From positions 1-63,326 of the forward strand of contig JAUYHB010000022.1 in NCBI GenBank assembly GCA_030690305.1: DNA of 63,326 nt, in the 5' to 3' direction. The position numbers and the translations under genes were made by a program. Origin of the DNA: a bacterium. GTDB taxonomy: Bacteria > Patescibacteriota > Minisyncoccia > Phycocordibacterales > JAGLPS01. Of this stretch, positions 2,094 through 50,260 are shown piece by piece. Every line of letters begins with the position of its first letter. Position 1 is the first letter of the stretch. The notes under the pieces were generated by a model. It saw nothing but the letters and a program-made list of their open reading frames with translations. It had not been told where the DNA came from and did not search any database.

Positions 2094-3308
2094 TCAAGCC
2101 TTTGAAATCGACTTAAGATGGGTAGGTAAAGAAGCAAATGCCACGGTGTCTTGAAAACGGGTTTTCGAATCTCTTACCAGCACGGTATTTTCAATGGCTT
2201 CTTTCTGGCCGAAGATAAGCAAATAGGGTGTTTTGGTATTCTCGGCGGTTGATGCCTGTCCGCTGAATTTGTCTTTTGTGAGCCCGTGCGAAACAAGAAT
2301 CTTCGAACGGCGGAGGGTTTCGATAACGGGTAAGCTTTTGAGTTTTGCATTATACCCGAGGTGGATGAAATAGAATTTCGGTTTCGGTAGTTTTTTTACT
2401 ACTGTCGCTCTCTGGTGTTTCCCTGCGCGTTTCCAAGAGAGGGTAATTCCCACAGCCGGTATTTCTTTCTTCAGACCGATTTTTCTTGACAAATGATTAT
2501 AACGATACCCGTGTCCCAAAACGAGGCGTTTTCCTTCTCTTTCCCCGCTTATGGAAAACGTCGTTTGCGACGCGTACTGCTTGCTTCCGACAAGGTGGTT
2601 GTCGATGGTATAGGGGATGCCGGAGCTTTCTATGAACTCAAGCACTTCTTTAAAATGCGCACGGCTCATGTCCGAAAGCGTTGAGAGGGGTTGGGGGGCG
2701 CCGACGACAAAACTTTCGAGTTTGGTATCCGTTGTCCGCAGAATTTCAAATATGTCCTTCTTGAATGCCTGACGGTACGGAGCGGGAAGTTCTTCGATAT
2801 GACGTCTGTAATAAGCGACGAGCTCTCGTTCCAGGCGGGAAAGGGATTCCCTGTCCCCGACGCTATTGATTGCAATTTCTATATTTTCAAAACCTTCCTC
2901 CGAAAGTATCGCGGTAGCAGTCTGAATAAGAAGCGCTTCGGCGACGCTTTTTGACGAGCCAATGACATCAAGTCCGCATTCGAAATTACTTCCTCGTCTG
3001 CGCCCGCTTCCGCGCATTGGTTTTTCATAATAAAAAAATACGTGTTGGGGAAAAGCGTCCATCTCTTCCATATACAAACGGAGCAAACGGGCTTTCTCTT
3101 GAAGTTCATACGCTTCCTCCTTGTCATCCTGTATTCCCGCGCTTTTTGCGACACCCCGTGCCCGTTTTCCATCTTCCGCGTTAATCGAGGGAGTTTCAAT
3201 GGGGCTGAATCCGTAATAAAAAGCAACCTCGCCCGGTTTTTCCACGGATGAAGCCAAGGCAATTTTCTTCAGCTCTTTTTCTTGCGGAGGTGGTACGTTT
3301 TTTTTCAT
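2094..3308 (-). CDS. hisS: Histidyl-tRNA synthetase-like class II aaRS with divergent catalytic motifs
   Basis: 404 aa. It has a class II core (GFSPIETPS, ...YYEKPMRGSGRRRGSNFECGLDVIG, ...GHGYRYNHL...IPAVGITLS) and a C-terminal anticodon-binding-like alpha/beta domain (KFYFIHLG...LLIFGQKEAIENTVLVRD). The motif 2 and motif 3 arginines appear substituted. Confidence 0.55.
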   Translation of the reverse strand: MKKNVPPPQEKELKKIALASSVEKPGEVAFYYGFSPIETPSINAEDGKRARGVAKSAGIQDDKEEAYELQEKARLLRLYMEEMDAFPQHVFFYYEKPMRGSGRRRGSNFECGLDVIGSSKSVAEALLIQTATAILSEEGFENIEIAINSVGDRESLSRLERELVAYYRRHIEELPAPYRQAFKKDIFEILRTTDTKLESFVVGAPQPLSTLSDMSRAHFKEVLEFIESSGIPYTIDNHLVGSKQYASQTTFSISGEREGKRLVLGHGYRYNHLSRKIGLKKEIPAVGITLSWKRAGKHQRATVVKKLPKPKFYFIHLGYNAKLKSLPVIETLRRSKILVSHGLTKDKFSGQASTAENTKTPYLLIFGQKEAIENTVLVRDSKTRFQDTVAFASLPTHLKSISKA

Positions 3309-3310
3309 GA

Positions 3311-3943
3311 CTAATAGGAATCGCTTGCGTCACCGGGTAAAAGGGAAACTTCTCCTACCGGGAGAAGGCGCACAAACGGCTTCCCGATGAAAAAGCTTCG
3401 TTTCAAAGGTCCCCATGTCCGCGAATCAAGACTTCCGGCCCGGTTGTCTCCCATTACAAAATATTCATCATCCGCCAAAGTAACAGTCATATAAGAAGAC
3501 TGGACATACTTAACGTACTCTTCGGAAAGTTCCAAACCTTCCGGATACGCGTCATTTTTTACCGTAACGTGTCCGTTCTGTATTTCTAGCGTTTCGCCGG
3601 GAAGTCCGATAATTCTTTTTATAAAGGCTTGGGAAGGGTTTTTAGGGTACTTGAAAATAAGAACCTCTCCGCGTTGCGGTTCCCCGAAGCGGTAACTGAT
3701 TTCATCGACAATAAGATAATCCCCGTTTTTAAATGTCGGGTCCATGGAGGCACCGCTTACCACGAATGGCTGAGCGATGAACATCCTGAAAGGAATAATG
3801 ATAAGAAGGGATAGGACCACAAAACTCACCAATTCCTTGATGGATTCTCCGATGCCGGACGGACGCTTTCCGTCCGTTTTTGCAGGCTCCGTATCGTTTG
3901 GGATGGAAGGTTCCATAAGAAGTTTTTCAATTGTAATACGCAT
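3311..3943 (-). CDS. lepB: Signal peptidase I
   Basis: N-terminal TM segment, catalytic boxes SGASMDPTF and GDYLIVDE, and GDNRAGSLDSR. Confidence 0.9.
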   Translation of the reverse strand: MRITIEKLLMEPSIPNDTEPAKTDGKRPSGIGESIKELVSFVVLSLLIIIPFRMFIAQPFVVSGASMDPTFKNGDYLIVDEISYRFGEPQRGEVLIFKYPKNPSQAFIKRIIGLPGETLEIQNGHVTVKNDAYPEGLELSEEYVKYVQSSYMTVTLADDEYFVMGDNRAGSLDSRTWGPLKRSFFIGKPFVRLLPVGEVSLLPGDASDSY

Positions 3944-3996
3944 TCCTTACTTGACGCAAGCAGATATGGTCATTACAATGACCGTATCTTTTTAGT

Positions 3997-4590
3997 ATGT
4001 ATATAATCGTTGGACTCGGAAATCCAGGCAGTGAATACGAAATGACCCGCCACAATACGGGCCGCATTGTCGTTGACGCTATTCGCAAGAAGGGTGATTT
4101 CTCCGAATGGAAGGAAGATAAGAAAAAAAAGGCGATGGTATCGGCAGGAAGTTTGTCCGGGGGGAAAGCAACACTTATTTTGCCGCAAACATTTATGAAC
4201 AAATCGGGAGAAAGTCTTAAAGGGCTTATTACAAGTAAGAAAAAAGCGGAAACGCTTGTTGTTGTGCACGATGACCTTGACCTTCCGCTTGGGACCTTGA
4301 AGATGTCTTTCAATCGCGGTTCTGGGGGACACAGGGGAGTGGAATCGATTATTCGCGCCATAAAAACGGAAACATTCATACGATTGCGTGTCGGCATTTC
4401 TCTTTCCGATTCAAAAGGACGCGCAAAAAAGCCCAATGGCGAAAAAGCGGTCAGTGATTTTATTCTTCACAAATTCAAAGACAGCGAACAAAAAATCCTC
4501 TCCAAAGTTTCCCGCAAAGCGGTGACCGTCGCCGAAACGTTACTTGCGGACGGCAGGGAAAGAGCAACCGAAATCTGCAATCAAAACTAA
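3997..4590 (+). CDS. pth: Peptidyl-tRNA hydrolase
   Basis: MYIIVGLGNPGSEYEMTRHNTG and VVVHDDLDLPLG, the canonical Pth motifs. Confidence 0.9.
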   Translation: MYIIVGLGNPGSEYEMTRHNTGRIVVDAIRKKGDFSEWKEDKKKKAMVSAGSLSGGKATLILPQTFMNKSGESLKGLITSKKKAETLVVVHDDLDLPLGTLKMSFNRGSGGHRGVESIIRAIKTETFIRLRVGISLSDSKGRAKKPNGEKAVSDFILHKFKDSEQKILSKVSRKAVTVAETLLADGRERATEICNQN

Positions 4591-9673: not shown

Positions 9674-10201
9674 ATGTTTTCCGACCCGGAAAAAAATATT
9701 GAAGAGCTCGGCCTTATGCCCGGCATGCACGTTGCCGATATCGGCGCGGGTTCCGGTTTTTACAGCTTGTCCGCGGCAAAAGCGGTAGGAAACAATGGAA
9801 AAGTGTATGCCATTGATGTCCAGAAAGACTTGTTAAGCAGAATCAAGAATGAAGCACAGCGACAACACATAAAAAACCTTGAAGTGATATGGGGAAATGC
9901 CGAAGAACAGGGGGGAACCAAGTTAAGAGAAAGTTCCGTTGATGCGGCCATAGTCGCCAATCTTTTGTTTCAAATTAAAAACAAAGAAGGTCTAGTCAAA
10001 GAAATAAAACGCATTCTCAAGCCAAAAGGTCGCGTTCTTCTCGTAGACTGGCAGGACTCTTTCGCCGGTATGGGCCCGCAATCGGGAGACGTGGTGCTGC
10101 CTGATTCCTCAAAGGAACTTTTCGAAAAAGGTGGACTTATCTTTGAGCGCCGCATGGGAGCGGGAGCGCAACATTACGGATTTATTTTTTCAAAACCATG
10201 A
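9674..10201 (+). CDS. Class I SAM-dependent methyltransferase
   Basis: Motif I VADIGAGSGFYS and motif II VYAIDV. Confidence 0.7.
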   Translation: MFSDPEKNIEELGLMPGMHVADIGAGSGFYSLSAAKAVGNNGKVYAIDVQKDLLSRIKNEAQRQHIKNLEVIWGNAEEQGGTKLRESSVDAAIVANLLFQIKNKEGLVKEIKRILKPKGRVLLVDWQDSFAGMGPQSGDVVLPDSSKELFEKGGLIFERRMGAGAQHYGFIFSKP

Positions 10202-11493
10202 GCAAATTCCAACTTCTTATAATGTTCGTATTCGGGGCGTTTATCGTGCTCGGTGTCATTATCTTTTCTGCCTCGCGTGGCACATCGACAAAGCCTGAAA
10301 ATAAAGTGACGATTTGGGGGACATTGCCGCTTAGTGATTTCAATACGATGCTCAAGGAACACCCTGTGAGCGAAAATAAAGAATTCGCCATCACGTATGT
10401 CCAAAAGCGCTCTACCGAATTTGACCAGGCATTTATTGAAGCGCTTGCGGAAGGCAAAGGCCCCGACCTTGTCTTCTTGCCGCATGATTCCTTGTGGAAA
10501 CATCAAGGGAAACTGTTTCCCATTCCCTATAAGAGTTATTCCGAGCGCCTTTTCAAAGACACGTTTATAGAAGAGGGGGAGTTATACCTTTCTTCCAGTG
10601 GAATCATGGGATTGCCGATTCTTGTTGACCCATTGATGATGTATTGGAATCGCGACGTATTTTCAAATGCGGGCATTAGCCGACCGCCGGAATATTGGGA
10701 TGAAATGTTTACCCTCGCTCAGACGCTTACCAAAAAAGACGAGTCGTTCAATATCACCGAAAGTGCCGTAGCGCTTGGAGAATTCAGAAACATAGCCAAT
10801 GCCAAAGAAATCATAAGCGCGCTTATTACTCAGGCGGGAGGTCCGATTACACAGCGGACGGACAAAGGGGCGACAGTGGTATTAAATCAAAAACTTGACC
10901 AAACGATTGTTCCCGCGGAAGCGGCTATTAACTTCTATACCGAATTTTCAAACCCCATAAAATTGTTTTATTCCTGGAATCGTTCACTCCCGCGTTCGGA
11001 CAATTTCTTTACGGCGGGTGACCTTGGCATTTACTTTGGTTTTGCCAGTGAGTTGGACCAAATAAAAGCAAAGAATCCAAATATTAATTTTGACGTCGCT
11101 TTGTTCCCGCAATCGCGCGAAGGACAAAATAAAACAACATATGGCCGCGTGCAGGCGCTTTCCGTCGTGAAAAGCAGCCGTAACATCGCCGCGGCAGTTT
11201 CCATCGCGGCTATTCTTACCGACAAAGAACACAGCGCCGCATTGAGTACTATTGCGGGATTGCCCCCTGTACGCCGCGACCTGCTTTCAAAAGCTCCATC
11301 CGGCGACGCGTACAGCATTCTGTTTTATCAAAGCGCCCTCCGCGCCCGAGGCTGGCTCGACCCCGATAGCGTGGCGACAACGGCGATTTTCCAGAGCATG
11401 ATAGAATCAATTACGGCGGGGCGTTTGCGAACGAGTCAGGCGGTTTCCCGCGCCCATTCGGAAATGCAGGATTTATTTAACCAAACAAAATGA
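10198..11493 (+). CDS. Membrane-anchored extracellular solute-binding protein (ABC SBP family 1-like)
   Basis: 431 aa. N-terminal TM anchor, SBP-like length and composition (GKGPDLVFLPHD, YWNRDVF). No permease or ATPase gene is adjacent. Confidence 0.6.
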   Translation: MSKFQLLIMFVFGAFIVLGVIIFSASRGTSTKPENKVTIWGTLPLSDFNTMLKEHPVSENKEFAITYVQKRSTEFDQAFIEALAEGKGPDLVFLPHDSLWKHQGKLFPIPYKSYSERLFKDTFIEEGELYLSSSGIMGLPILVDPLMMYWNRDVFSNAGISRPPEYWDEMFTLAQTLTKKDESFNITESAVALGEFRNIANAKEIISALITQAGGPITQRTDKGATVVLNQKLDQTIVPAEAAINFYTEFSNPIKLFYSWNRSLPRSDNFFTAGDLGIYFGFASELDQIKAKNPNINFDVALFPQSREGQNKTTYGRVQALSVVKSSRNIAAAVSIAAILTDKEHSAALSTIAGLPPVRRDLLSKAPSGDAYSILFYQSALRARGWLDPDSVATTAIFQSMIESITAGRLRTSQAVSRAHSEMQDLFNQTK

Positions 11494-18458: not shown

Positions 18459-19954
18459 TTTTCGACAAAGATAACGGAATGCAATAAATCTCCGGTTGCA
18501 GGTTCGATTTTCGACTCAATGGTAATTCCACACTCTTCTCCTTCGGTGGCTTCACTTATTCTGTTTTTCAATTTTTGCATTTCACGTATTGAGCCGACCC
18601 CGATTTCCACTCCACGTCGAATAATCTTTACTTCGGTACCTGTCTTGATGGAACCTGTTTCCACCCGTCCCCCGACGATATATTTATTTTTCTCCGCACT
18701 GAATGTTTTAAGAACTTTCAATGTTCCTATGATTTCTTCCACGGTAATTTTCGGGGTTTTTTCTTTCAATACTTCTTCAATTCGTTCCAGAAGACCGTAA
18801 ATAACATCGAATGTTTCAACCGTAATTCCCGAACGTTCTGCAAGGTCCTTTGCCCCACTGTCGATTTTCGTGCGAAACCCAAACACAATGGCGTTCGGAT
18901 GGGAAATAGCAGACTTGATATCGCTTTCCGAAACGGCACCTATGCCCGCGCGGATAACTTTCATTTTTGCTCTTTCATTTTGGAGTACCTCGATTTTTTT
19001 CGTCAGCGCTTCCAAGGAGCCCGATGTGTCGGCCTCAATGATGACGGGGATAACAAAACGGAGGTCCTCACTCTCCTCTTTTTTGTTTTTAATTTCCACT
19101 TTATTTTGTCCTTCGGCATATTCCTGCGCTTCGTTTTTGGACAAAAAGGTTTTAAACAAAGCTCCGACGGGAGGAAGCGTGTTCCAGCCGATAATGCGCA
19201 CCGGAGAGGAAAAACTTGCCTTCTCAATTTTTTCTCCCTTGAAATTTTCCATAATACGCACGGGTGCATATGCTCCGTCAGATGCGACAAAAGATCCGCT
19301 TTCAAGAGTTCCATTTTTGATAACCAGCGTTGCTGTTGAGCCTTTGCGCGGGTCGAGTTCATTTTCAAGTACGATGCCTTCCGCGGGGATGGACGGGTTT
19401 CCCGTGAGTTCTTCAAGTTCCGCAACGAGGAATATCATGTCCAAAAGTTCCGGCACTCCCTGTCCGGTTTTACCGGAGATGGAAACAAAAGGAATCGTGC
19501 CTCCGAAGCCTTCCACGTACACTTCGTTTTCCGCAAGGCTCATCTTTGTTTTTTCAATGTCCGCTTCGGGCTTGTCCACTTTGTTGATGGCGACAATGAA
19601 GGGGATACCGGCTTCCTTGATTTCTTGATACGCTTCCTTTGTTTGCGGTTTAACTCCTTCTTCCGCCGCCACAACAAGCACCGCAATGTCGGCGATTGCC
19701 GCGCCCCGGGCTCGGAGTGCGGAAAAAGCTTCATGACCGGGTGTGTCAAGAAATGTTAACTGTTTTTTGATTCCTGTTGCGGTCGTGTATGTCGCTTCAT
19801 ACGCCGAAATGTGCTGAGTAATCCCGCCGCTTTCCTTTTCCGTGACGTTTGTTTTGCGTATGTAATCAAGCAGGGTCGATTTACCGTGGTCGATGTGACC
19901 CATGACGGCGATGACTGGTGTTCGCTCCGACAAATTGTTTATTTTCTTTTCCAT
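18455..19954 (-). CDS. infB: Translation initiation factor IF-2 (short form)
   Basis: G domain VIAVMGHIDHGKSTLLD, DTPGHEAF and NKVDK, followed by the C-terminal IF-2 domains. Confidence 0.92.
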   Translation of the reverse strand: MEKKINNLSERTPVIAVMGHIDHGKSTLLDYIRKTNVTEKESGGITQHISAYEATYTTATGIKKQLTFLDTPGHEAFSALRARGAAIADIAVLVVAAEEGVKPQTKEAYQEIKEAGIPFIVAINKVDKPEADIEKTKMSLAENEVYVEGFGGTIPFVSISGKTGQGVPELLDMIFLVAELEELTGNPSIPAEGIVLENELDPRKGSTATLVIKNGTLESGSFVASDGAYAPVRIMENFKGEKIEKASFSSPVRIIGWNTLPPVGALFKTFLSKNEAQEYAEGQNKVEIKNKKEESEDLRFVIPVIIEADTSGSLEALTKKIEVLQNERAKMKVIRAGIGAVSESDIKSAISHPNAIVFGFRTKIDSGAKDLAERSGITVETFDVIYGLLERIEEVLKEKTPKITVEEIIGTLKVLKTFSAEKNKYIVGGRVETGSIKTGTEVKIIRRGVEIGVGSIREMQKLKNRISEATEGEECGITIESKIEPATGDLLHSVIFVEK

Positions 19955-19956
19955 GA

Positions 19957-20427
19957 CTAGTGATTACTTACCGAATGTTTAGCCTTCTCCAGAACGTGTT
20001 TTTCCTCGTCGGTCAATTCATATTCCGACGAGAATTCTTTTATAGGTTTTGAAAAAACGCTTACCCGTTCACGCGAGTACAGACTTGATATGACGACGCC
20101 GTTTCCTTCTTCGTTTACGAATGCTGTCGCGAAACTCTGATTTCCTCCCGCACCTGTGCCCTTAAAAGGATTGAAACGTACCGTCTCCACGGCGCGCGTG
20201 CCTGTCTTCATCCTTTTTTCAAGATTTTCAAGGTGGGCCGAAGTTTCTTTCCGTGAACGGTCAAGGGATTTAATGGCGCTGTGAATATAATGCACCACTT
20301 CCTCGAAATCTTTCGCCTTTTGTCCTCCAAACACTCTCTGTATTCTTACTTCAAGGCGGATAATCCACCCTATAAGGATAACGATAATTCCTGCGGCAAT
20401 GTATAAAATTGTGTATATATCGGACAT
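19957..20427 (-). CDS. DUF4446-like membrane-anchored protein
   Basis: N-terminal TM, a coiled region, then RFNPFKGTGAGGNQSFATAFVNEEGNGVVISSLYSRE. Confidence 0.55.
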   Translation of the reverse strand: MSDIYTILYIAAGIIVILIGWIIRLEVRIQRVFGGQKAKDFEEVVHYIHSAIKSLDRSRKETSAHLENLEKRMKTGTRAVETVRFNPFKGTGAGGNQSFATAFVNEEGNGVVISSLYSRERVSVFSKPIKEFSSEYELTDEEKHVLEKAKHSVSNH

Positions 20428-46173: not shown

Positions 46174-46176
46174 TAT

Positions 46177-46247
46177 TGCCGGATCGTCTAATGGTAGGAC
46201 ATGGGCCTTTGAAGCCTAGTATCTTGGTTCGAATCCAAGTCCGGCAG
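46177..46247 (+). tRNA. tRNA-Gln (anticodon UUG)
   Basis: TGCCGGA...TGGGC-CTTTGAA-GCCTA...TTGGT-TCGAATC-CAAGT-CCGGCA-G. Confidence 0.8.
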
Positions 46248-46321
46248 TCAATAAGATTTTTTTCCAGTAAAAACTCGATAATAATCATTAAAAAAAAGGT
46301 ATCAAATGCTACCCTGTTTTG

Positions 46322-46330: not shown

Positions 46331-46346
46331 TTTGGTGCATTTGCGA

Positions 46347-46362
46347 TTCCAAGTACGGCAGT
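46347..46362 (+). repeat. Partial duplicate of the tRNA-Gln 3' end
   Basis: TTCCAAGTACGGCAGT versus ATCCAAGTCCGGCAGT (46233-46248): 14 of 16 identical. Confidence 0.7.
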
Positions 46363-46363
46363 T

Positions 46364-46380
46364 CCGAAAACTGATAAACA
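46364..46380 (+). repeat. Left copy of the island-border motif CCGAAA..T.AT.AACA
   Basis: CCGAAAACTGATAAACA versus CCGAAAGTTATCAACA at 50245-50260. Same orientation, 13 of 17 aligned positions match. Confidence 0.45.
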
Positions 46381-46387
46381 GTGAATT

Positions 46388-48082
46388 ATGACATCAATAT
46401 TAGAAAATTTTATAAAAGCAATCAGTGATAAATACAAAATTTCGTTAAACGAAGCTTTTGAAATTTTGTCCATGTTCTCCATATTAGGCCGTCCTTTGGA
46501 TGAGATATATAAGGAATATTGGGTGGCAGGTACGAATGACGGCGGTATCGATGGTATTTACATAGATGAAGATACGGGGAATGTACATATCTTTCAATCA
46601 AAAAATTCAAAACAACTTAAACAAAAAGATATTCAAAAATTTAAAAGCGACTACAAAAATTTTTTCGAATCTGGAAACACATCTAATATTGAAATTAACG
46701 AAAAAATTCAGGCTTTTATTGATGAGATAAAAGATTTTGGTGAGAAAGGGAGAATCCTAAAACCTATTCTTTATTTCTGTTACTCAGGAGAAAATACTGA
46801 TCCCCCAAATGCAAAAATATTTAAAAAATTCGCTAAGCTAGTGGGTAATCCTCCTTTTTTTATTAAGGATTCAGTATTACTTATAGAAAATTTAAAATCT
46901 TTGCAGGGAATACAAAGATCTTCAATAGTTGAGTTTTCCTTCCACCCAGTCTCAAGTGAAATATACCCTGGGGAACAAGCAATTTTCTCGTTCTACACTC
47001 AACAAATTAAAGCCGCAAATTTCCGAATAAGTGCTATTGAACTCTGTAAGTTAATTGATGAAGAAAAAAGTAAAAATGGTACCATAGACACGTTATTCTC
47101 TGAAAATATCAGAGGTTATCTAAAGGTAAATAAGACCAACAAAAAAATACTTGAAACACTTCTTGATTCATCTAAAAGAAGTTTCTTCCCTTTTTTGAAT
47201 AATGGTCTTACTTTTATTTGTGAAAATATGCAAATTCCAGCTCAACCGCAGGTAAACATTTTTCTTCTAAGTGTGAAAAATCCATTAATTGTTAATGGGC
47301 AACAAACTGCTCGCATGATTTACAAAATTTACACAGAGAAAGGGGAGAAAACACTTGATAAAGTTTATCTAACAGTTCGGGCTTATGAAACTAAGGAGAA
47401 TCGTCTCATAGACATGATTACTGAAGCGACAAATACTCAAACCACAATCAACTTTCGTGATCAAATGAGTAACAAGCACTTTAATCATTGGGCTCGTATA
47501 ATGTTTGCCTCTAAAAAAGTAACCTATATAGCAAAACGCGGAGAGATACTTAACCCTAATCCTTTGGAGGGGGAATTGTCTGAATCAGTAGCAAATGACA
47601 CTGTTCTTAAGTTTTGGTATGCGACCTATCATGAAGATCCTCACACTGCAAAAACTTCAAAATCTCGTGTTCTAGAATCAATTTTTCTTGCGACAAAAGA
47701 AGAAAACCCCTCTTTAGCAAAGCTATTTTCTGGAAATCCAAATTCTCCTGTCTACTCCCAGCTTTATAATGCGTATCAAATTTACAAGTTAGTATTAGAG
47801 AAAAGGAAAATCATTGAAAGTAAAAAACAAACTGACTTGGAATACATATTTCATGCTGATGAATTAATCTGCTACGGAATATATAAAAAATTACAAAAAA
47901 AGAAAAAATTAAAAAATCTTTCAAGTATAAATATTGAATCTTTATACGAAGAAGTTCGGTCAATAATTAATGAAGTTGTTAAAGAAGAAAAAGTTAACCT
48001 CGGGGAGGTATATGCACATTCAAAATATTTTAAAAGTGAAGGAATACTTGAGGATTATAAGTTAAAAGCAGGAATAAAATAA
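46388..48082 (+). CDS. AIPR-family abortive-infection protein with an N-terminal Mrr-like nuclease motif
   Basis: 564 aa and very AT-rich. GTNDGGIDGIYIDEDTGNVHIFQSKNSK (D...QxK nuclease-like), followed by NNGLTFICEN and IVNGQQTARMIYK, typical of AIPR proteins. Confidence 0.7.
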   Translation: MTSILENFIKAISDKYKISLNEAFEILSMFSILGRPLDEIYKEYWVAGTNDGGIDGIYIDEDTGNVHIFQSKNSKQLKQKDIQKFKSDYKNFFESGNTSNIEINEKIQAFIDEIKDFGEKGRILKPILYFCYSGENTDPPNAKIFKKFAKLVGNPPFFIKDSVLLIENLKSLQGIQRSSIVEFSFHPVSSEIYPGEQAIFSFYTQQIKAANFRISAIELCKLIDEEKSKNGTIDTLFSENIRGYLKVNKTNKKILETLLDSSKRSFFPFLNNGLTFICENMQIPAQPQVNIFLLSVKNPLIVNGQQTARMIYKIYTEKGEKTLDKVYLTVRAYETKENRLIDMITEATNTQTTINFRDQMSNKHFNHWARIMFASKKVTYIAKRGEILNPNPLEGELSESVANDTVLKFWYATYHEDPHTAKTSKSRVLESIFLATKEENPSLAKLFSGNPNSPVYSQLYNAYQIYKLVLEKRKIIESKKQTDLEYIFHADELICYGIYKKLQKKKKLKNLSSINIESLYEEVRSIINEVVKEEKVNLGEVYAHSKYFKSEGILEDYKLKAGIK

Positions 48083-48123: not shown

Positions 48124-48753
48124 ATGATACCGAAAAAGAAAATTAATCTAAGTGGAGAGAGTATTTTTAAAGACCTAGCAAAAGAATTAATACCGCATAG
48201 AGAGAAACCTATTGGGTCCATGCTTTTCATTGTAGAAGGTACTCAATTAGAGCCTCGTGTAGGAATACGTTATCCTGGTAGAAAACTCAGGCGAAGAACT
48301 GAAATAAAAAGAGCTAATAAAAGTACCGTTCTTTGGGCTAATCTCCTAGATTTTGAAGTTATTCCCTTTGAAAATGGGCAACCAGGAACATCAATACAAT
48401 TCACATATACAAATTTACTTAAAGACTTCGAGGATTATAAAAAGAAAGACAATGAATTTTGGGATATGATTTTGGAACTTCATAGACGCAATCAAATTAC
48501 TAAAATTCCCCCAAATCTTGGAGGAATTGAACCAAAGTTGTTTTTAGAGATGCTTAAGTGGATGTGGATACAGGAAGATGTTAACTATAAACTATCGCAT
48601 AGCGATGTAGGGTCCCCATTAAAGTATAGACTAGAAACTAGAAGCCAAAAGCCAACAGGGAAAGGCGCAGGAAGAGACAAATTTTTTGCAGCGCTAATTT
48701 TAGTCAAAGAAGGTCATTTTTCTGCTGGAGAAATCAAAAAAATTATACCTTAA
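48124..48753 (+). CDS. Hypothetical protein (209 aa), island-specific
   Basis: No motif I can name. Weak D/E...E-x-K-like patch WIQEDVNYK. The 3' end overlaps the convergent LexA-MTase gene by 11 nt. Confidence 0.55.
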   Translation: MIPKKKINLSGESIFKDLAKELIPHREKPIGSMLFIVEGTQLEPRVGIRYPGRKLRRRTEIKRANKSTVLWANLLDFEVIPFENGQPGTSIQFTYTNLLKDFEDYKKKDNEFWDMILELHRRNQITKIPPNLGGIEPKLFLEMLKWMWIQEDVNYKLSHSDVGSPLKYRLETRSQKPTGKGAGRDKFFAALILVKEGHFSAGEIKKIIP

Positions 48754-50209
48754 AAAAGTCATACGATTGTCTTTTTCCCATTACTAACTTATGCTCAGGG
48801 GCAATCTCTCCATTTGTTAGTCTTTTGTTTATAATATCGCAATATTTTTTATCAATTTCTGCAGATATAAACTGACGATTTAAATTTCTACACACATCTA
48901 TTTCTGCACCACTACCTCCGAAGAGCGTAAAAACTACGTCTTTTGGTTTTGTTGATGCTTTAATCAACATCCCTGTTAGTTTTTGAGGAATTTGGCAGGC
49001 ATGATATGTTTTTTCCTTGCTTACATTTTTAACAAGGTTGAATTCAAACCAAGAGTAGGGCATCCTACCTTTTGAACCATTTGCTAGATTTTGTTGAATC
49101 CTTTTGTCTGTTGGATTTTTGTATGGTAGTGCAACCCCATCTTTAAAAAATTTATTATTAACATTTTTTCTTACATGTAAAATACTTCTATGGGCTGTAG
49201 TAAATCTCTTAGGCGTATGTCCAACATTTGTGTTGTAAACCCAAACATATTCATGGATATTTGGGAAATATGAATCTAGATATTTAACACGAAGATGTGC
49301 ATTCTGCTGTGGATAATTCATCATAAAAAGATTACCGTCTTCTTTAAGCACACGCATTGATTCCTTGGCAAGTTCTATATACCAGTTTATGTAATCTTCG
49401 AATTTTTTTGTGTAATTATTTTTACCGTATTTAATTCCAACGTTGTAATCAGGATCTCCAAAAATCATATCCACGCTGTTATCTGGTAGATCTTTCAAAA
49501 CATGCATTACATCACCGTTGTAAACTCTGTTTAAATAATCGGACATCTTATCTTTTCGTTGAACATTTTTCTTTACAGGCAAAATAAAAGTTTGAGACGT
49601 TTTCTTTATTTCATTTGTTTTTACTACATCAAGTAAAATACCTTGTACAGTTAACTGCTGGTCATTTTTAATTATTATTGGCTGATAATTTTTGTTTGCT
49701 GGTTGTAATCTAATCTGCCCCTTTTCTTTGTAGAAAGTTTTAAGTGTTGCTTCATTTCCATTAAGCAGTGCAACTACCTTGTCTCCATTTTCAGCAACAT
49801 TTTGTTTTTTTATCAGAATCGTATCTCCGTTATTTATTCCTTCATCAATCATACTGTCACCTTGTACTCGGAGGGCATATAATTCACCTGATTTTGAGAT
49901 TTTATTTTTTGGTATTGCAATATTTTCTTTTTCTTCTTCAAAAATATGTATAGGTTCTCCAGCTGATATTGTCCCAAGAAGGGGAATGCTAACCATTGCT
50001 TGCGAAGACGTAATTTCAACCCCACGAATTTTATTCTTCTCTTTTTTAAGATATCCACCCTCTCTTAATTCTTCAAGGTGTTGGTGAATAGTTGATACAG
50101 CCAGGTTAAGGTGCTTAGCAATTTCTTTAATTGAAGGTGAAAATCCTTTTTGTTGATTATAAAAATCTAAAAAATCTAAAAGTTGTTTTTTACGAGGAGT
50201 AAGTCCCAT
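48743..50209 (-). CDS. Fusion protein: full-length LexA repressor (wHTH + S24 autopeptidase) joined to a beta-class N6-adenine/N4-cytosine DNA methyltransferase
   Basis: LexA part: LTPRKKQLLDFL...SIKEIAKHL (wHTH), cleavage site ISAGEPI, catalytic GDSM, and Lys in EATLKTFY. MTase part: motif IV FGDPDYNVG upstream, motif I TLFGGSGAE near the C-terminus (beta order). ATG 50209 preferred; the track start at 50218 is TTG. Confidence 0.8.
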   Translation of the reverse strand: MGLTPRKKQLLDFLDFYNQQKGFSPSIKEIAKHLNLAVSTIHQHLEELREGGYLKKEKNKIRGVEITSSQAMVSIPLLGTISAGEPIHIFEEEKENIAIPKNKISKSGELYALRVQGDSMIDEGINNGDTILIKKQNVAENGDKVVALLNGNEATLKTFYKEKGQIRLQPANKNYQPIIIKNDQQLTVQGILLDVVKTNEIKKTSQTFILPVKKNVQRKDKMSDYLNRVYNGDVMHVLKDLPDNSVDMIFGDPDYNVGIKYGKNNYTKKFEDYINWYIELAKESMRVLKEDGNLFMMNYPQQNAHLRVKYLDSYFPNIHEYVWVYNTNVGHTPKRFTTAHRSILHVRKNVNNKFFKDGVALPYKNPTDKRIQQNLANGSKGRMPYSWFEFNLVKNVSKEKTYHACQIPQKLTGMLIKASTKPKDVVFTLFGGSGAEIDVCRNLNRQFISAEIDKKYCDIINKRLTNGEIAPEHKLVMGKRQSYDFFKV

Positions 50210-50217
50210 GTAATACA

Positions 50218-50260
50218 ATTATATCTAAATAGACCGAAAATAAACCGAAAGTTATCAACA
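50218..50260 (-). promoter_or_regulatory. LexA-MTase promoter region with tandem direct repeats
   Basis: Minus strand reads TGTTGATAAC-TTTCGGTTTAT-TTTCGGTCTAT-ttaga-TATAAT, then 8 nt, then ATG. The 11-mer TTTCGGT(T/C)TAT is repeated in tandem across the -35/spacer. Confidence 0.45.

Follow-up and report, generated by a model that had tools for sequence, protein, structure and literature searches.

The window analysed here is a stretch of 63,326 nucleotides (positions 1 to 63,326 of contig JAUYHB010000022.1, assembly GCA_030690305.1, from a member of the Patescibacteriota). On its minus strand, at 48743..50209, lies a gene, hereafter lexA-M, which encodes in a single polypeptide of 488 aa a LexA winged helix-turn-helix (wHTH), an S24 autopeptidase and a β-class N6/N4 DNA methyltransferase (MTase). 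The reading that we favour is that this fusion is the modification enzyme (M) of a mobile Type II restriction-modification (R-M) cassette, in which the LexA N-terminus would provide both autorepression and a damage-triggered release from it. As a whole we judge this reading to be reasonably probable; taken by parts, the autorepressor and R-M component appears very likely, and the damage-sensing component stands at slightly less than an even chance.

The fusion protein and its relatives

The unbroken minus-strand open reading frame (ORF) covers 48743..50218 and would give 491 aa from a TTG codon; translation from the ATG at 50209 yields the 488-aa protein, with an N-terminus (MGLTPRKKQ...) that agrees with those of the homologues. 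Three Pfam domains were detected far above threshold, LexA_DNA_bind (PF01726; aa 2-63, 47.6 bits), Peptidase_S24 (aa 76-192, 113 bits) and N6_N4_Mtase (PF01555; aa 246-462, 121 bits), and the NCBIfam LexA equivalog TIGR00498 matched aa 2-198 with 172.5 bits, the cutoff being 110.95. The wHTH (aa 1-63; 50021..50209, on the minus strand like the other domains and motifs of the fusion), delimited by Pfam and by alignment to LexA structures, aligns to E. coli and T. maritima LexA, and its recognition helix VSTIHQHLEEL carries Q47 where E. coli LexA has E45, a base-contacting residue. The S24 domain (aa 76-192; 49634..49984), supported by Pfam, structure alignment and residue conservation, contains the predicted autocleavage site between Ala83 and Gly84 of ISAGEP (codons at 49958..49963) and the catalytic residues Ser119 (GDSM; 49853-49855) and Lys157 (EATLKTFY; 49739-49741). 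HMMER alignment to structures placed A83-G84, S119 and K157 on E. coli LexA A84-G85, S119 and K156, and the mutant structure entries 1JHH (S119A) and 3JSO (K156A) confirmed the Ser and Lys columns. A variable linker follows (aa 193-225; 49535..49633), weakly conserved in alignment A1 and always in frame, and leads into the MTase domain (aa 226-477; 48779..49534), which was assigned from Pfam, PADLOC and PDB relatives. There, motif IV (GDPDYNVG, with DPDY at 49445-49456, aa 252-255) precedes motif I (LFGGSG, 48908-48922, with FGGSG at aa 430-434), the permuted order of the β class. The nearest solved relatives are also β-class enzymes (8URK, CcrM, M.MboIIA and M.RsrI), and the PADLOC model MTase_II (PDLC03337, Type II) was matched with 398 bits over 255 of its 264 positions.

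The original prediction, made from the DNA letters alone, of a complete LexA joined to a β-class MTase is thus borne out by the three Pfam domains, the TIGR00498 score and the order of the MTase motifs, and every motif it had listed (ISAGEP, GDSM, EATLKTFY, and DPDY ahead of FGGSG) was recovered at the position given for it. By all sequence-level tests the fusion is a LexA, and it is not a stand-alone protein. With canonical LexA (TIGR00498; 1JHH, 3JSO, 3K2Z) it shares the winged HTH, the Ala-Gly site, the Ser-Lys dyad and an alignment over the full LexA length, and it differs in its approximately 290 extra C-terminal residues, which form the MTase, in an operator found only at its own promoter within the 63 kb, and in its location in a mobile defence island. 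Compared with other β-class MTases (CcrM, YhdJ, M.MboIIA, M.RsrI, 8URK), the fusion likewise has motif IV before motif I and the Pfam N6_N4_Mtase domain, whereas its own MTase subfamily is distinguished by fixed GDPDY(N/G)VG and LFGGSG motifs.

That a sequencing or assembly error had joined two separate genes is a negligible possibility. In a homologue search covering 5.8 billion proteins, of which the best 120 clusters were inspected, the same three-domain architecture was found in these best 120 clusters, with 66-98% identity and on independent contigs; all three domains were recorded in 119 of the 120, the remaining one being a 445-aa member without an HTH match. Overall, more than 120 sequence clusters show the LexA-S24-MTase architecture, so the co-occurrence of Peptidase_S24 and N6_N4_Mtase that had been proposed as a database check is recurrent. 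Moreover, the linker of about 30 residues varies among 36 aligned homologues yet stays open in frame. Because the architecture recurs in this way, in dozens of independent assemblies, we rejected the artefact or frameshift explanation, and with it the doubt that had been raised about the 49600-49650 junction. Among these 36 sequences, identity amounts to about 85-90% within the MTase domain, and variation is greatest in the HTH region.

The named sources of the best 120 clusters are nearly all Patescibacteria (Falkow-, Yanofsky-, Woese- and Kerfeldbacteria, and Parcubacteria). A few carrier metagenome-assembled genomes are labelled Elusimicrobia, Gammaproteobacteria or Omnitrophica, which are labels only and may reflect mis-binning. 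About 20 full-length copies were found among GTDB species genomes, and the LexA-MTase design is common in Patescibacteria. In public records (GenBank) these proteins are named either 'transcriptional repressor LexA' or 'site-specific DNA-methyltransferase'. MTase homologues lacking LexA (260-300 aa, 55-66% identical) occur in Chloroflexota and Proteobacteria.

The original prediction had staked itself beforehand on the conservation of the AG site and the catalytic Ser and Lys in homologues, and these residues proved to be near-invariant. Among 120 family members, the Ala is present in 119, the Gly in 120, the Ser in 120 and the Lys in 119, and each of the four was found in 41/41 diverse fusions. 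In canonical-length LexA the site and dyad were conserved in 84/84, indicating that, as far as alignments can tell, they are maintained in the fusions just as in canonical LexA.

To see the LexA part on its own, aa 1-200 of the fusion were searched against 1.84 billion cluster representatives. The closest matches, approximately 55, were mostly proteins of 390-841 aa with the LexA module at residues 1-200, sharing 46-58% identity where they were other fusions; canonical LexA of about 200 aa appeared only below approximately 170 bits, at an identity of about 45% or less. All 52 long or intermediate matches scanned contained LexA_DNA_bind plus S24, and their C-terminal parts were N6_N4_Mtase (31), Eco57I (6), D12 (5), N6_Mtase (4), C5 DNA_methylase (3) and MmeI_Mtase (3). 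The LexA module therefore sits on at least six DNA MTase families, at least five of them besides the fusion's own. A rough neighbour-joining tree, without support values, contained a split with 40 of 42 fusion modules plus 6 short sequences on one side and 78 short plus 2 long sequences on the other. The recognition-helix types are scattered across the MTase classes, from which it appears that the modules are portable and have been shuffled among these classes.

Two further groups of loci illustrate this variety. The family of LexA fusions to C5 MTases is represented among GTDB species by at least 57 full-length members, one of them in the complete genome of Saccharibacteria TM7i (CP075337.1; locus L246, 2940-5777), where a fusion to a C5 cytosine MTase (2977-4530) faces a convergent partner of 416 aa. 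On one Patescibacteria contig (L061) an N6_N4 fusion and a D12 fusion (10001-11452 and 18616-20157) are separated by 8 kb; each has a TGTGGATAAC box, a repeat core of its own (GCTCGGG and CTTCGGGT) and a convergent partner of its own.

Predicted operator and recognition-helix covariation

The promoters of the fusion genes follow a common plan, in which an 11-mer (consensus TGTGGATAACT) is followed by two direct repeats and then by a -10 hexamer. In the window, all on the minus strand, these correspond to a conserved DnaA-box-like element, TGTTGATAACT (50250..50260), a predicted operator formed by the direct repeats TTTCGGTTTAT and TTTCGGTCTAT with a period of 11 bp (50229..50250; cores at 50244-50250 and 50233-50239), and a TATAAT hexamer read from the sequence 8 nt before the ATG (50218..50223). 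Across loci the operator repeats measure 7-11 nt and overlap the promoter, and the period was 11 in 32/32 loci with a detected repeat, periods of 9-13 having been allowed. In the TM7i fusion promoter, two TTTTCGTATA repeats with a period of 10 overlap the -10, and the ATG lies 6 nt after it. The full two-repeat operator has a single exact occurrence in the window, at the fusion's own promoter. A simple sigma-70 scan did not call this promoter, and no good -35 was seen. Both here and in many homologous loci, no Shine-Dalgarno sequence is present and 6-9 nt separate the -10 from the start codon; because the two are so close, the fusion mRNA is probably leaderless or nearly so, as is the lambda cI mRNA transcribed from PRM.

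That the wHTH recognises these repeats is argued for by their covariation with the recognition helix. In a first set of 34 loci, a ..CGG.. core went with Q, E or D at the residue aligned to E. coli LexA E45 (22 loci) and a ..CTA core with F, Y or H (12 loci); no locus deviated. Nine of the 34 had been found through the DNA pattern with TTTCGG alone, and all nine encode Q or E fusions (8 with HQH or HEH, 1 with SQH); the six complete pattern-found loci are N6_N4 or D12 fusions. In the C5 family, an independent set, E or Q accompanied TCGG (27) or TCGT (3), and H or Y accompanied TCTA (8) or TCGA (2), again with no exception. The repeat core thus covaries with this residue in 74/74 scored loci, a figure that counts loci and not phylogenetically independent events. 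Since the covariation recurs in different protein contexts, it constitutes good evidence, comparative in nature, that the LexA wHTH binds the predicted repeats at its own promoter, and it lends support to the binding of the N-terminal domain to 50218-50260 that the original prediction had put forward. Direct repeats have evolved as LexA motifs on several occasions and are known from several phyla, Patescibacteria included (PMC7739468).

Derepression of the island upon cleavage, which had also been proposed, is weakly supported: the full operator occurs once in the window, at the fusion's own promoter, and in related cassettes no fusion operator was found upstream of the partner genes or of the genes for controller (C) proteins described below. 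One Curtissbacteria locus (L140, 2758-3735) has a full box plus TTTCGGT-repeat promoter in front of a DUF2806 gene rather than a LexA fusion, and this promoter may be an operator left without its fusion gene, or an additional target.

The 11-mer preceding the repeats behaved differently from them. Its family consensus matches the DnaA-box 9-mer TTATCCACA at 9/9 positions and the window copy at 8/9, as a sequence match, and the reverse complement of TGTGGATAA is exactly this consensus. Of the 22 exact TGTGGATAAC sites in 273 kb of Patescibacteria loci, 21 lie at LexA-type promoters, and elsewhere in the window the element is not enriched. It precedes N6_N4, D12 and C5 fusions, flips its orientation in four loci and stands 28 to 40 nt from the -10. 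The flips, the variable distance and its occurrence in several MTase classes make it look like a site for a constant factor, outside the variable operator, for which DnaA is, by resemblance of the motif, the obvious candidate. Other roles were considered for this element. That varying distance to the -10 and the changes of orientation led us to reject it as a -35 element, and it is unlikely to be the target of the MTase since the same box precedes D12 and C5 fusions. A replication origin composed of iterons and a DnaA box was also discarded, since there are two repeats only, they overlap the promoter and covary with the HTH, and there is no Rep gene. The sole exact TTATCCACA 9-mer in the window lies inside the fusion gene (49308-49316, plus strand), over the NYPQQ codons; synonymous changes in homologues remove it, and for this reason it was taken as a coincidence.

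The promoter data also bear on whether the fusion could act as master SOS repressor of the cell, with repair genes under its control and the MTase as cargo. Its score above the LexA equivalog threshold and the GenBank annotation 'transcriptional repressor LexA' would fit such a role. However, the operator is restricted to the fusion's own promoter in 63 kb, two fusions lying 8 kb from each other in one genome differ in their operators, the low-GC island around the gene is foreign, canonical LexA genes of 204 aa exist in Patescibacteria, and the fusion modules separate from canonical LexA in the rough tree, all of which make this role very improbable. For canonical Patescibacteria LexA, the one usable promoter locus (L190) showed no clear box or repeats.

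The probable restriction-modification cassette and the proposed damage response

Tail-to-tail with the fusion gene lies an ORF of 209 aa (48124..48753, plus strand), whose 3' end overlaps that of the fusion by 11 nt and which, from its position, we presume to encode the restriction endonuclease (R) of the cassette. A convergent ORF overlapping the fusion 3' end by 4-41 nt was seen in 22/22 full-length cassettes whose downstream DNA was readable; among the C5-fusion loci, 57 of the 60 with sufficient sequence beyond the fusion also have a convergent ORF, its end lying within a few bases of the fusion stop. The convergent ORFs of the 22 full-length cassettes fall into two families, A (about 209 aa, the type of the window) and B (about 274 aa; for example L061 11449-12273, minus strand). 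These families have in common only a 50-residue helix of borderline significance, and a profile-profile comparison between them gave a probability of just 8%. Their homologues (230 for the 209-aa family and 253 for the 274-aa family) are all hypothetical proteins.

Recognisable nucleases occupy the same convergent slot in related fusions, namely an HNH protein and an Endonuclease_7/His-Me protein, and the TM7i partner carries the DNA-binding domain of the NgoFVII restriction enzyme (RE_NgoFVII_C). In addition, at least seven sibling cassettes have, directly upstream of a partner of family A or B, a gene of 73-86 aa encoding an HTH_3 protein like C.AhdI and C.BclI; this controller-like XRE/HTH_3 gene overlaps the partner start in L010, L012, L013, L014, L016, L019 and L027. 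The C-like genes are preceded by a perfect palindrome, TAATCCCATTTTGGGATTA, a C-box-like site, giving the classic C-protein/C-box arrangement. The window cassette has no C gene. Taking together the nucleases in the slot of relatives, the C genes with their C-box, the 398-bit match to a Type II MTase and the convergent ORFs of the C5 loci, we infer, by analogy, that the partner is a nuclease. Confident AlphaFold models were obtained for the two partner families (predicted local distance difference test 84 and 87; predicted template modelling score 0.84 and 0.89), and on the strength of these models the families may represent new restriction-endonuclease folds. The family A model compared with BFVD gave no significant match, with a marginal one to an uncharacterised Streptomyces phage protein.

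An alternative would be that the pair is no R-M system at all; the fusion would then be an orphan epigenetic MTase regulated by damage, next to an ORF for an unrelated accessory protein. In accordance with this, neither partner family matches a nuclease family or fold, MTases sharing 85% identity or more have partners from two unrelated families, and the stand-alone MTase homologues of other phyla have heterogeneous neighbours. We nevertheless regard it as improbable, given the recognisable nucleases in the partner slot of related fusions, the C-protein gene and C-box upstream of both partner families, the score against the Type II model, and the position of the cassette in a low-GC island beside an abortive-infection (Abi) gene.

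On the R-M interpretation, then, regulation of the cassette could proceed as follows. The protein would dimerise through its S24 domain and set its two wHTH domains on the direct repeats over the promoter, so that the MTase represses its own gene. Because the M and R genes are convergent and overlapping, strong early transcription of M would oppose expression of R, producing the 'methylase first' order that a new cassette requires, and later autorepression would relax this opposition. RecA filaments, arising from DNA damage that would include double-strand breaks from self-restriction of under-methylated DNA, would bring about cleavage at Ala83-Gly84; this would part the DNA-binding domain from the dimerising part, derepress the promoter and yield more MTase, allowing methylation to catch up. 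The net result would be a built-in damage-sensing feedback with an effect comparable to restriction alleviation, and the DnaA-box-like element may tie the promoter to a further factor, possibly DnaA. Two ingredients of this scheme have precedents, as unbalanced R-M activity that cuts the host chromosome induces SOS, and convergent-promoter and antisense control are known for EcoRI (PMC3874152).

The main rival of this scheme is that the LexA module is a borrowed dimeric autorepressor replacing the C protein, with S24 serving for dimerisation and perhaps for slow turnover, and with no role of RecA or SOS. Known regulatory MTases need only an HTH (PMC12707154, PMC2760811), and certain natural variants keep the same box-plus-repeat promoter: in two of them (L029, 5998-7080, and L026, 5920-7077) the HTH is fused straight to the MTase without S24, and in a third (L192, 3001-4428) the cleavage site reads Ala-Val instead of Ala-Gly. 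On the other hand, pure dimerisation would require neither a catalytic dyad nor a scissile bond, and the Ala-Gly, Ser and Lys are near-invariant across the 120 plus 41 fusions, as in canonical LexA. We therefore consider the borrowed-repressor explanation rather unlikely.

The damage-responsive R-M reading has its own difficulties, and the following observations, together with the caution attached above to the covariation counts, weigh against it. The three variants just mentioned, and a fourth locus in which LexA-like and MTase are separate adjoining genes (L025, 5818-7409), imply that cleavage is dispensable for at least part of the function. Neither recA, nor repair genes, nor a second lexA were found within the 63-kb window. 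Motif IV of the fusion is DPDY and not the canonical (D/N/S)PP(Y/F); DPDY and LFGGSG are, however, invariant throughout the MTase subfamily, and because the LexA-less stand-alone homologues share them we interpret them as traits of the subfamily and not as signs of decay. The window partner had no match in Pfam, NCBIfam or PADLOC, the partner families had none in the PDB by sequence or profile, and the models of both families gave no significant PDB fold match and no nuclease-fold match, so that the restriction-enzyme role is assigned from position and analogy. Finally, the net effect on methylation of the S24-MTase fragment left after cleavage could even be negative.

Comparison with known systems places the fusion closest to the regulatory MTases of the M.SsoII/M.Ecl18kI type, which repress their own promoter via a short N-terminal HTH (PMC3978073, PMC2760811, PMC12707154). 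M.SsoII, M.Ecl18kI, M.EcoRII and M.MspI, like the fusion, have a sequence-specific DNA-binding domain at the MTase N-terminus, but theirs is an HTH of roughly 70 aa, whereas that of the fusion belongs to a complete LexA (about 200 aa), which includes the S24 autopeptidase and a cleavage site that is conserved. The predicted operator of the fusion is also distinct, being a pair of direct repeats phased by 11 bp that overlaps the promoter. Genes of regulatory MTase systems are divergent or face-to-face, and those of the fusion and its partner are convergent and overlapping; in the former, one intergenic operator serves R and M and binding of M raises R, which is not what we found in the fusion cassette. 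Further differences are the occurrence of the module, within one superphylum, on at least six MTase families, and the constant DnaA-box-like element. On the favoured reading, the fusion would be a regulatory MTase with a whole LexA in place of the short HTH. A full-text search of the literature found no description of LexA-MTase fusions, and a 2025 review of R-M systems (PMC12707154) does not mention LexA.

Other systems share single aspects with the fusion. C-protein systems (C.PvuII, C.AhdI, C.BclI) address the same problem, to delay restriction relative to methylation in a new cell; the window cassette differs from them in having no C gene and in placing the control of M within the M polypeptide itself, whereas its siblings do have a C-like gene. 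Type I restriction alleviation after DNA damage, which depends on ClpXP (PMC11109961), resembles the proposed outcome in easing restriction of the chromosome, but it acts by proteolysis of the restriction subunit, and the fusion would act by transcriptional derepression of the MTase through LexA self-cleavage. In phage CI/LexA-like S24 repressors, an S24 autocleavage module couples a mobile-element promoter to RecA, as proposed for the fusion, the module of which scores as LexA proper and not as CI.

How R-M systems spare their own host is a central question of the field, and in the CRISPR-poor, reduced genomes of Patescibacteria R-M is thought to be the main antiviral defence. If the favoured reading is true, the fusion would be the first control element of a Type II R-M system wired directly to the RecA damage signal, and a third design beside the known controls (C proteins, short-HTH regulatory MTases, and promoter methylation and antisense RNA). 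The matched variants (Q/E/D with TCGG, F/Y/H with TCTA) would help to analyse the recognition of direct repeats by LexA and to construct orthogonal damage-inducible switches, and the 'transcriptional repressor LexA' labels carried by the fusions would mislead the reconstruction of SOS regulons in these phyla. The TM7i LexA-C5 fusion with its NgoFVII-like partner could serve as an experimental model provided that the strain is in culture, which we believe to be the case. Much more tentatively, it may be speculated that Patescibacteria have replaced R-M controllers with a cleavable LexA that is fused to methylases of at least six families and exists in two or more operator/helix classes, besides core variants, making their main immunity damage-responsive (methylation up, and restriction down via convergent transcription), and that the DnaA box couples it to replication initiation.

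The low-GC island and the rest of the window

The cassette lies in a low-GC island at about 46.25-50.3 kb, with a GC content of 0.31-0.36 compared with 0.44-0.54 in the flanks, whose left border is a tRNA-Gln(TTG) gene (46176..46249, plus strand). This island of approximately 4 kb, directly downstream of the tRNA-Gln, comprises three defence-type genes (AbiU/AIPR, the partner and lexA-M) and no integrase. The first of them, an abortive-infection-type AIPR/AbiU gene (46388..48082, plus strand; Pfam AIPR 130 bits, PADLOC AbiU 142 bits), ends 41 nt upstream of the partner gene and is absent from the other cassettes examined. A prophage origin was discarded, as no viral contig carries the fusion and there are no phage genes nearby. 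In a sibling genome, which has a 98% identical fusion and shares the right flank, the contig ends immediately behind the M gene; the C-terminus of M is not the same, pointing to another partner in that genome.

At the far end of the island, the 46340-46387 region had been named as a further place for the N-terminal domain to bind. It does not contain a complete operator: we found there a second box-like element with one half-site, TGTTTATCAGTTTTCGG (46364..46380, minus strand), 8 nt from the AbiU start and adjoining a 17/20 copy of the tRNA-Gln 3' end (46343-46362). The pattern of box plus half-site occurs twice in the window against 0.01 occurrences expected, although the pattern was defined after both sites were known. 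This element could be the remnant of an older cassette, or it could serve in recombination or as a weak operator.

Palindrome avoidance was considered as a guide to the target of the fusion MTase and was abandoned, as it revealed a general GATC avoidance with no tie to this enzyme. In the window outside the island, 50 GATC sites were observed whereas about 179 were expected under a Markov model, and carrier loci elsewhere behaved similarly. Within the same part of the window, CCGG and GGCC too are depleted, and together these depletions hint at other R-M pressures on the genome.

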